A DNA stretch of 21,751 nt from Thermodesulfobacteriota bacterium (GTDB taxonomy: Bacteria; Desulfobacterota; Desulfobulbia; Desulfobulbales; SURF-16). Position numbers: made by a program. Position 1 is the first letter of the stretch. Each line of letters opens with the position of its first letter. The stretch covers positions 1 to 21,751 of the forward strand of contig JBDLIE010000045.1 in NCBI GenBank assembly GCA_039715015.1, written 5' to 3'. Shown here piece after piece: positions 12,001 to 15,000 of the stretch.

Positions 12001-15000
12001 GCCCCTGCCGATCATATCGATCCGCTTTACGCAGAGACCTTGCGTAAGGTGGTTGAGCAAGGGGTTGAGGTGGTGGCCTACCAGGCCCAGGTTCAACCCC
12101 CGGAAGTTGTAATAAAGCAAGGTATGCCGGTGAGTATAGAGCGTAATGACTAACAAGAAGGAAAAGGCGGTTATTTTACTGAGTGGCGGTCTGGATTCAA
12201 CAACGGTACTGGCCATTGCCCGCAATCAGGGTTTTGCCTGTTATTGCCTTAGTTTCTCCTATGGCCAGCGACAAAGTATCGAGCTGGAAAAGGCCCGGAT
12301 GAATGCCGATAAATTAGGGGCTGCCAAACACCTGGTCTTGAATCTTGATCTTGATAAGATCGGCGGTTCAGCCCTGACCACGGACCTGGCTGTCCCTAAG
12401 ATGCGTTCCGAGGAGGAGATCGGCCACGGGGAACTCCCTGTGACCTATGTGCCGGCCCGCAATACCATTTTTCTTGGCCATGCTGTGGCCTGGGCTGAGG
12501 TGATCGGCGCTTTTGATATTTTTGTGGGGGTCAATGCTTTGGATTATAGCGGCTATCCCGACTGTCGGCCCCAGTTTCTGACCGCTATGGAGGAGGTGGC
12601 CAACCTCGGCACCCAGGCCGGAATCAGCGTTGGCCGCCGTTTTCAAATCCATGCACCGCTCATGAAGCTCACCAAAAAAGAGATTGTCGAAAAAGGGATG
12701 GCATTGGGTGTTGATTACTCATGCACCCATAGCTGTTATGACCCCGGTCCTGACGGACTTTCCTGCGGTATGTGCGACGCCTGTCTCCTGCGCCTCAAAG
12801 GTTTTCGCGAGGCTGGCTTTGAAGATCCCCTTGCCTATCAGACCCAGGAGGGTGACCAATGAGCCTGTCCCTGGCCGACCTTGGATCGCTATTTATGGCT
12901 GGTCTTCCTGGATATGACCTGGATGATTCCACCCGTTATCTCATCGACAAATATGGCGTGAATCACTTCATTTTCTTCAAACGCAACGTTGAGAGTGAGG
13001 CACAGCTATCGCGTTTGAGTAAAGATCTCATCGGATATTGCCGGAAAAAGGGGTTGGCTGAACCCTTAATTTCCATTGACCAGGAGGGGGGCACGGTGGC
13101 CCGCCTTCCTGAGCCCTTTGTCCAATTTGCCGATGCCAGGGTGTATGCGGACGGCCCAGATGCCCGGCGTGATCTCCAGGAGTATGCCCGTCTCTGTGGT
13201 CGTGACCTGCAGAAGGTCGGGGTCAATATGAATTTTGCCCCGGTTCTTGACGTCTGTCCACATGGGCAAGGTTGTTTTATGGAGCACCGCAGCCTGGGTG
13301 CAGATCCTCAGCGGGTGGCGGAGTTGGGCGTTCTTATTATTGATGCCTTTCAAAACAAGGGAATCGCTGCCTGCGCCAAACATTTTCCTGGCCTGGGTGA
13401 GGCGGTTATCGACCCCCACCTCCATCTGCCTGTTGTCAGTGACTCCTGGCAGAAAATAAAGGACTGTGATCTCCTTCCTTTCCAGGCAGCTATCAAGGCC
13501 GGTGTTGCCTCTGTCATGACCTCCCACGTCCTCTACCAGGACATAGACCCTGAAAATCTTGCCACCTTTTCGTCAAAGATCCTCACCGATCTGCTCCGCC
13601 ATCAATTGGGCTATGATGGCATGGTGGTCACCGATGACCTGGAGATGGGAGCGGTGGAAAATGATATCGGCGTGCCGGAGGCCTCTGTGCGGGCCTTTAA
13701 GGCAGGTGTTGATCTGCTGCTTATCTGCCATGATCACGGCAAGGTGAAAGAGGCGGTTTCCCTGCTCCATCAGGCGTACTTGAACAAAGAGGTCTCTAAA
13801 GAGCGGCTGCAGCAATCTTTTTTACGAATAAATAAGGTGAGCGGTTGTTTTCTGAGAAATGGTGCTTAAATTTTTTAGTCCAAAGAGTTTTTCTTTGTTT
13901 TCAGGTGGTTACCTGGAAGACAGAGAGAATGCTGGAAGAGGATTTTTTTTTTAAGTATAGTTTAAGAGAGGGGTACGAAAGGTGATCTGATATCTCTTTT
14001 CCCCTCTGTTTCAGGCTTCCTTCTGGAAGTCTTTATGTCACGGCGACCTGCAGTGACAGGTCGTCACGACGTTCCATGGACAATGGGAGATTTATTTCCA
14101 TGTCTAACCCATTATCAGGAGGTGTGTATGGAACTAAAGGTTGAAGGCTTGAATCTTAAGGTAAGAAACTCATGGCGTGAAAAAATTGCAGAGGAACGGG
14201 AGCGGTTGGAGAGGCATCATGCAGCCCTCGTCCATAATCTGCGAATCACCATTGAGCAGACGTCCTCACACAAGGAGGGCGGCCATGAAGTACGACTGAT
14301 TGCCGGAGTACCCAATGACACGGTGGTTGTCAAACGTAAGGGAGAGTCGGTCCGGCCCATACTTGTCGAAGCTTTTGATACACTGGGCCTACAGCTTAAG
14401 GAGCTTCAGCGTAGACGTAGACAGAGCCATAAACATCATGAGCCAGGCCCTGCAGGAAGTGCTGGGCTCGGGGTGATCAAAAACGTTTCCCCCTATGAGT
14501 CCTATGGCTTTATTCTGGCTGCTGATGGCCGGGAGGTTTATTTTCACGAAAACTCCCTCAAAGGCCTGCAGATAGATGATCTTTCCGAAGGAGACGCCGT
14601 CACCTTTGGTGAGACAGCCGGAGATAAAGGCCCTCAAGCCACGTGGGTGCGGACAGTCTAAAATTCCTTTGTCCTTTCTCTAAGGACTGTCGTTTTTAGT
14701 AGAAATCTCCACCGGGCTTGTTTAAGGTTGCATATCCTTAAACAAGCCCGGTTTTTATTTGCCCTTCTGATAAGCAGTGCAAGGAAAGAACAATAAAAGA
14801 AAAGAGAGTCATGCAACAGATACAGCCGCCCATACCCGCCGAATATCTTGAAGAAGATGAGAAAAATCTTATTGACCGCATCAAGGCCCGCAAGAAAGAG
14901 CTGGGCAGCCAGCTCCTGATTCTGGGTCATCACTACCAGCAAGAGGCCGTTTTTCAATGCGCCGACATGGCTGGTGACTCACTGAAGCTGGCCAGGCAGG

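Follow-up and report, generated by a model that had tools for sequence, protein, structure and literature searches.

HPFcold proteins, which combine an N-terminal PF02482 domain with a C-terminal PF00313 domain, were defined by Stuart et al. (Nat Commun 2026;17:7049, PMC13392368; preprint 10.1101/2025.11.08.686982), whose survey tree spans several phyla including Thermodesulfobacteriota. Their Coxiella burnetii example, CBU_0020 (PDB 9T0Z and 9TZE), occupies the tRNA cleft of the 30S subunit in a hibernating 70S ribosome and places its cold-shock domain (CSD) on the 16S rRNA's anti-Shine-Dalgarno stretch (aSD). In 9T0Z, U1534 stacks on Y142, C1535 stacks on F132 and hydrogen bonds to R123, and R177 bridges the rRNA backbone. 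bS21, uS7 and the aSD keep the CSD in place, and the paper reports data in which dimers were not seen, leaves CSD dimerisation open and allows for repeated independent fusions (PMC13392368). Independently, Chan et al. (bioRxiv 10.1101/2025.11.04.686544) described an HPF that lacks the dimerising tail and is fused to a Csp. According to that 2025 census, chimeric HPFs do not replace canonical HPF in the genomes analysed.

Two HPFcold genes in one genome

The 21,751-nucleotide stretch of DNA that we analysed (the window) carries a gene of this architecture, g02211; a second, g01353, lies on another contig (C17:9126-9677) of the same genome. The parts of g02211 and the signal that precedes it are as follows.

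14128-14661, plus strand: g02211, an HPFcold gene of a divergent, order-wide subfamily called A here, 177 aa
14128-14433, plus strand: HPF/RaiA (S30AE) domain of g02211, residues 1-102, beta-alpha-beta-beta-beta-alpha, from Pfam and the model
14428-14457, plus strand: flexible linker of g02211, residues 101-110, pLDDT <50
14464-14658, plus strand: HPFcold-type cold-shock OB domain of g02211, residues 113-177, from sequence and the model
14117-14122, plus strand: Shine-Dalgarno AGGAGG of g02211, which favours the start at 14128 over the in-frame ATG at 14035

A start at 14035 was rejected on the position of the Shine-Dalgarno sequence and on 36 orthologues, all of which begin at the equivalent methionine.

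Judged by their domain sequences, g02211 and g01353 are members of the known, structurally characterised class HPFcold. Each has both Pfam domains above the gathering thresholds (23.7 bits for S30AE and 27 bits for the CSD): in g02211 S30AE spans residues 4-98 (28.5 bits) and the CSD residues 115-176 (45 bits), and in the 183-aa g01353 they span residues 5-108 (58.2 bits) and 120-180 (31.8 bits). The best PDB match of both was 9T0Z, with E 1.1e-7 over residues 16-173 of g02211 and E 1.2e-41 over residues 1-180 of g01353. The paralogues share 30% identity, and their scores against the NCBIfam yfiA model (24.4 and 34.6 bits) fall below its cut-off of 40.9. An earlier note on this DNA had proposed a new, third architectural class of hibernation factor. 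That proposal fails, for the class has already been named, solved and surveyed by Stuart et al., in the very paper that the note listed as one on doxycycline cryo-EM, and Csp fusions appear in Chan et al.; the portion of the Stuart et al. source alignment that we used even contains g02211-type sequences (motif RHHPG, 25 times). Searching with a profile of 29 members gave 526 clusters (50% identity; E no higher than 1e-30), which include a few proteins with several CSDs. By eye, HPFcold proteins P0082, P0141, P0149, P0005 and P0097 carry further parts: a CBS-like domain, an OsmC-like domain, an extra N-terminal domain, a second CSD and a long N-terminal region.

Six-frame profile searches of this genome, which is 99.99% complete, gave exactly two PF02482 matches, g02211 and g01353, and six CSD matches, namely the two fusions and four stand-alone Csps. 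The same searches detected no PF16321, the C-terminal dimerisation domain of long HPF (8/14 controls detected), no RMF (PF04957; one control over the cut-off) and no match to PF18845, PF18849 or PF18854 (controls over the cut-off for PF18854 only), baeRF-type families that we take to stand for Balon. Nor was a 16S gene found in this assembly. Between rpoN, which ends at L039:1995, and ptsN, which starts at 2005 and is followed by rapZ, there is a gap of nine bases with no hpf. The earlier statements that S30AE occurs in only two genes of this genome, that each of them ends in a CSD and that the usual hpf slot is empty are thus upheld.

Fold, rRNA-contact residues and proposed mode of action

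Fold comparison was done with a model of g02211 only (AlphaFold, from an alignment of 36 orthologues; pLDDT 81.5), in which residues 101-110 form a disordered linker. The N-terminal part aligned to RaiA (8rd8_D, Z 16.3, rmsd 1.4 across 101 residues) and to HPF (4hei_A, Z 16.1), and the OB part to CspA (Z 12.3); 9T0Z was not among the fold-library matches listed. Because the model aligns so well to RaiA/HPF, the weak S30AE score of g02211 is not a chance result: a false match was rejected on the fold, and the doubt that had been attached to it earlier can be dropped.

The A-type HPF domain has a mean net charge of +4.5 and keeps basic residues at R26 (R/K in 40/40 rows), R29 (40/40) and K91 (40/40) together with a basic helix end. 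At residue 23 A proteins have E, where 21/21 long HPFs have K or R, and at residue 88 they have L in 28/40 rows, where R is found in 132/142 B-like rows (B being the g01353 type). W16, E23, RHH and G87 are invariant in the subfamily. In the CSD, F128 and Y138 of g02211 align to the aSD-stacking F132 and Y142 of 9T0Z; of the 40 A rows, all have F at the first position, and at the second 36 have Y and the other 4 F. R123, K155 and R177 of 9T0Z correspond to N119, D151 and W173 of g02211 and are kept in neither g02211 nor g01353. These three positions also vary across the family, with R123 in 72/142 and R177 in 8/142 B-like rows and K155 not conserved family-wide. Specific to the A lineage are W173 (39/40), on the RNA-facing strand, and Y/F123 (32/40).

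With the Coxiella protein, g02211 shares PF02482 plus PF00313, a size of about 20 kDa and the F132/Y142 pair; it differs in its longer linker, in W replacing R177, in the lack of the KLEVG lysine and in the change of two basic positions. The A linker is also about five residues longer than that of the g01353 type (median motif spacing 44 versus 39). Coxiella possesses a short HPF as well and lacks any stand-alone Csp, whereas the present genome has two HPFcold proteins, no canonical HPF and four Csps (PMC13392368).

By homology, g02211 probably acts by blocking the A/P sites and shielding the aSD within the 70S ribosome, which would protect against 3' exonucleases, of which RNase R is an example (PMC12320835). 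Ribosome binding by both g02211 and g01353 is expected by analogy with the HPF family and with 9T0Z. During starvation the HPF domain, which is basic, would fill the tRNA cleft of the 30S subunit and block the decoding site, while the CSD on its short linker would be seated in the mRNA exit channel and stacked on the aSD. The 3' end of 16S rRNA would in this way be shielded from exonucleases in a monomeric 70S ribosome, a job that long HPF does via 100S dimers. The guess in the earlier note that the CSD anchors the factor to the 16S 3' end agrees with what the cited description of 9T0Z shows for the Coxiella protein. Mycobacterial RafH is reportedly a two-domain HPF that also gives 70S hibernation with the aSD protected. 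Its second domain is a duplicated C-terminal domain and not a cold-shock domain, according to the part of Chan et al. cited here (10.1101/2025.11.04.686544).

Long HPF, short HPF with RMF, and RaiA/YfiA resemble g02211 in the N-terminal fold (Z 13-16) and both proteins in the presumed A/P-site block. Unlike long HPF and the short HPF-RMF pair, the two proteins here lack the PF16321 tail, occur in a genome in which no RMF was found and are encoded away from rpoN. An order without long HPF and a genome without RMF, taken with the longer A linker and with dimerisation left open by Stuart et al. (PMC13392368), could point to a CSD that itself dimerises and pairs ribosomes in a 100S-like manner, standing in directly for the long-HPF tail. 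We consider this very unlikely, as the 9T0Z data lack dimers and show the CSD already engaged by bS21, uS7 and the aSD.

Census of the order Desulfobulbales

We surveyed 151 genomes of the order, each at least 90% complete; these are kin and hence not independent. A subfamily profile found the A (g02211) type in 149/151, a count that is in part given by construction because 36 sequences from these relatives went into the profile. The B type was found in 37/151, the PF16321 tail in 1/151 and rpoN in 151/151. PF02482 was found in 134/151 genomes, with 185 matches that were classified in part. The census bears out the view that the HPF-CSD fusion is the HPF-family factor of the order. Among 41 relatives PF02482 was present in 39, its matches splitting into A and B types. 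Two more A genes, one each in G010 and G040, came from a mixed profile, which gives A in 40/41 relatives.

A-type loci occur in Desulfobulbaceae, Desulfurivibrionaceae and Desulfocapsaceae among others, and their neighbours are conserved: nadA lies downstream in 33/40 and nagZ upstream in 30/40, and nadA follows in 42/80 named loci. In the window these neighbours are the following.

12859-13869, plus strand: nagZ-like glycosidase gene, conserved upstream neighbour
14811-15902, plus strand: nadA-like quinolinate synthase gene, conserved downstream neighbour
14711-14759, plus strand: intrinsic-terminator-like 17-bp hairpin and T tail, between g02211 and nadA

From their translations we take the first gene to encode a nagZ-like glycosidase and the second a nadA-like quinolinate synthase. 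The minus strand from 235 to 10807 presumably holds a flagellar gene cluster (flgF/G/A/H/I/J, flgK and flgL-like), whose hook-associated proteins of 845 and 901 aa have long inserts.

We examined 50 rpoN loci of the order: the 30 that scored best and 20 more picked across families and single-contig genomes. None had an HPF downstream (0.9-1.8 kb searched); ptsN or rapZ started within about 200 bases in 36, and neither was detected in the other 14. As positive controls, the same script recovered the long HPFs of G034 and of G037. These are the only 2/41 relatives with PF16321, and both have the order rpoN-long hpf-ptsN plus an A gene. Outside the order PF16321 was present in 212/242 genomes (212/251 overall, 0/9 in the order), and 19/20 long HPFs fetched from there adjoin rpoN, the remaining one being cut by a contig end. 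An A-like gene was found in 16 genomes outside the order. Since all 16 keep PF16321, the chimera and canonical HPF coexist there. In one outside family (f22: G240, G150, G119 and G265) an A-like gene is accompanied by PF16321 matches that score weakly (E 2e-4 to 7e-9), and the tail of long HPF is possibly decaying there.

In about 8/149 genomes the A gene lacks a CSD, judged by E-value, and the domain is hence dispensable in some lineages. Such genes, now short HPFs, were seen in L050 (G028), L057 (G039), L264 (G324) and L261 (G314); in G028 nadA is directly next. Fifteen extra PF02482 loci comprised ten of a separate short family, two CSD-less A genes, one canonical-type gene, one other short gene and one unmatched. 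The separate short S30AE-like family (L043, L065, L258-L260, L265, L270, L271, L275 and L276) scores poorly against long-HPF and HPFcold profiles, and in L043 and L065 its gene is divergent from a LysR-type gene. The canonical-type HPF of G398 (L257, C68) lies on a 3.8-kb contig of a genome that is 7% contaminated and whose rpoN locus is empty, and is possibly a contaminant. Given the ten short-family loci and G398, A is not the sole S30AE protein everywhere.

The g01353 type behaves differently and is a patchy, Coxiella-like accessory copy. It retains Y143, equivalent to Y142 of 9T0Z, and has T133 in place of F132, a residue that the Coxiella protein has and g01353 lacks; across the order's B type the F132 equivalent is gone in 13/13 rows. 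The order's B type often carries an aromatic residue at the R123 position of 9T0Z. In its context (L001:3046-6678, G000 C17) g01353 presumably follows a pcm-like methyltransferase gene, and what we take to be a stomatin/NfeD-like pair lies upstream on the opposite strand. Like both proteins, the chimeras of Chan et al. join an HPF without a dimerising tail to a Csp. As described in that preprint they occur at variable locations without replacing canonical HPF; the patchy g01353 type fits such mobile extras, whereas the g02211 type sits at a fixed locus in an order where canonical hpf is missing from nearly all genomes searched.

Throughout the order a single HPFcold gene seems to have taken the place of the usual hibernation factor, contrary to the 2025 census statement. 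The class is already published, and the order-wide replacement is the only new part. The limited literature that we searched held no report of this replacement, nothing on ribosome hibernation in Desulfobulbales or on hibernation promoting factor in Desulfobacterota, and nothing on HPFcold by name beyond Stuart et al.; a scoring of these genomes may be included in the supplements of Chan et al.

Origin, leader and meaning of the A subfamily

Quick HPF-domain trees were built from few columns and from subsets of the sequences (18/40 A, 9/16 A-like, 6/13 B and 30/142 B-like representatives). Long HPFs fell on one side of a branch with support 100, and A plus A-like sequences on a branch with support 99-100. 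The branch leading to the A lineage is long (1.3-1.5 changes per column). The long HPFs of G034 and G037 nest within the long-HPF clade (support 100), and a branch with support 99 separates the fused CSDs from eight stand-alone Csps of the order. A VK.HE linker is common to basal A rows, A-like rows and the B type.

The A gene could instead have arisen within the order, if a local Csp had taken the place of the C-terminal domain in the rpoN-linked long hpf. An AU test (34 rows) did not reject a tree in which one side of a branch holds long HPF together with the A lineage (p 0.47), and so did not separate this from a nesting of A among B-like sequences; independent fusions recurring in evolution are allowed for by Stuart et al. 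(PMC13392368). Such an exchange is hardly to be expected, given that G034 and G037 have both genes, with long HPFs that belong firmly to the long-HPF clade, that the fused CSDs stand apart from the order's own Csps, that A-like genes coexist with PF16321 in every one of the 16 outside genomes, and that the linker motif is common to the basal A, A-like and B sequences. The earlier suggestion of a local swap of the tail thus finds a counter-case in G034 and G037, which retain rpoN-long hpf-ptsN and carry the g02211 type as well. Our preferred reading is that g02211 is the order's core factor, inherited vertically and mostly present in one copy. A would have predated the loss of the rpoN-linked long hpf and would have taken over afterwards, an order of events drawn from the coexistence of the two genes in G034, G037 and the outside genomes and not from a rooted species tree.

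Upstream of g02211 lies a further feature.

13960-14135, plus strand: structured putative 5' leader of g02211, with a hairpin at 14042-14065, GTTCCAT at 14071-14077, a second hairpin and the Shine-Dalgarno sequence

GTTCCAT matches the first seven coding bases of g02211 exactly in reverse complement. The fold of the leader has a z of -4.7, and 0/200 shuffles were equally stable; pairing with the start is predicted with a probability of 0.95 and changes little with temperature (0.98 to 0.95 from 10 to 37 C). The core motif occurs in 16/24 loci of family f1 (six genera) with differing hairpin sequences, and start pairing above 0.6 is predicted in 9/16 of these motif-bearing loci. RNAalifold on a MAFFT alignment gave no consensus structure, and neither covariation nor compensatory change was seen; the leader is for this reason a lead only. 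Occlusion of the Shine-Dalgarno sequence by the motif did not exceed that in shuffles and was rejected. An Rfam search gave no match at the gathering score. A loose sigma-54 pattern was present in 4/38 A and 0/15 B loci and absent upstream of g02211, where a scan also gave no sigma-70 consensus site.

This leader, the long A branch, the two changed basic positions, the lineage-specific W173 and Y/F123, and the 15 A-bearing genomes that PF02482 missed at E 0.001 would all suit a subfamily that has drifted from bulk hibernation towards a translational regulator or RNA chaperone, acting on mRNA or responding to temperature. This we regard as unlikely: most genomes of the order yielded no HPF-family gene other than A, its fold is intact, four stand-alone Csps exist, where a lineage has lost a domain it is the CSD that went and the HPF part that stayed, and the predicted leader pairing is nearly constant between 10 and 37 C. 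The temperature- or mRNA-responsive hibernation envisaged in the earlier note finds no support here.

Shielding of the aSD in a 70S ribosome is our preferred function for the A subfamily. On balance we favour the broader view that the whole order gave up ancestral HPF and 100S hibernation and made one vertically inherited, remodelled HPFcold subfamily its core factor, a counter-example to a rule of coexistence only; in one family, pairing of the leader with the gene's own start codon may gate translation and may be opened by the CSD of the protein itself. The pattern is of modest importance, the class itself having been published. One practical consequence is that HPF censuses can miss the A subfamily (134/151 genomes by PF02482 versus 149/151 by the subfamily profile), which may inflate counts of "HPF-less" bacteria. 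The order offers free-living, non-pathogenic bacteria with HPFcold as the only HPF-family factor found, and for that reason the role of HPFcold could be tested there without a background of canonical HPF. The order-wide pattern suggests that aSD shielding in 70S ribosomes can fully stand in for 100S dimerisation.
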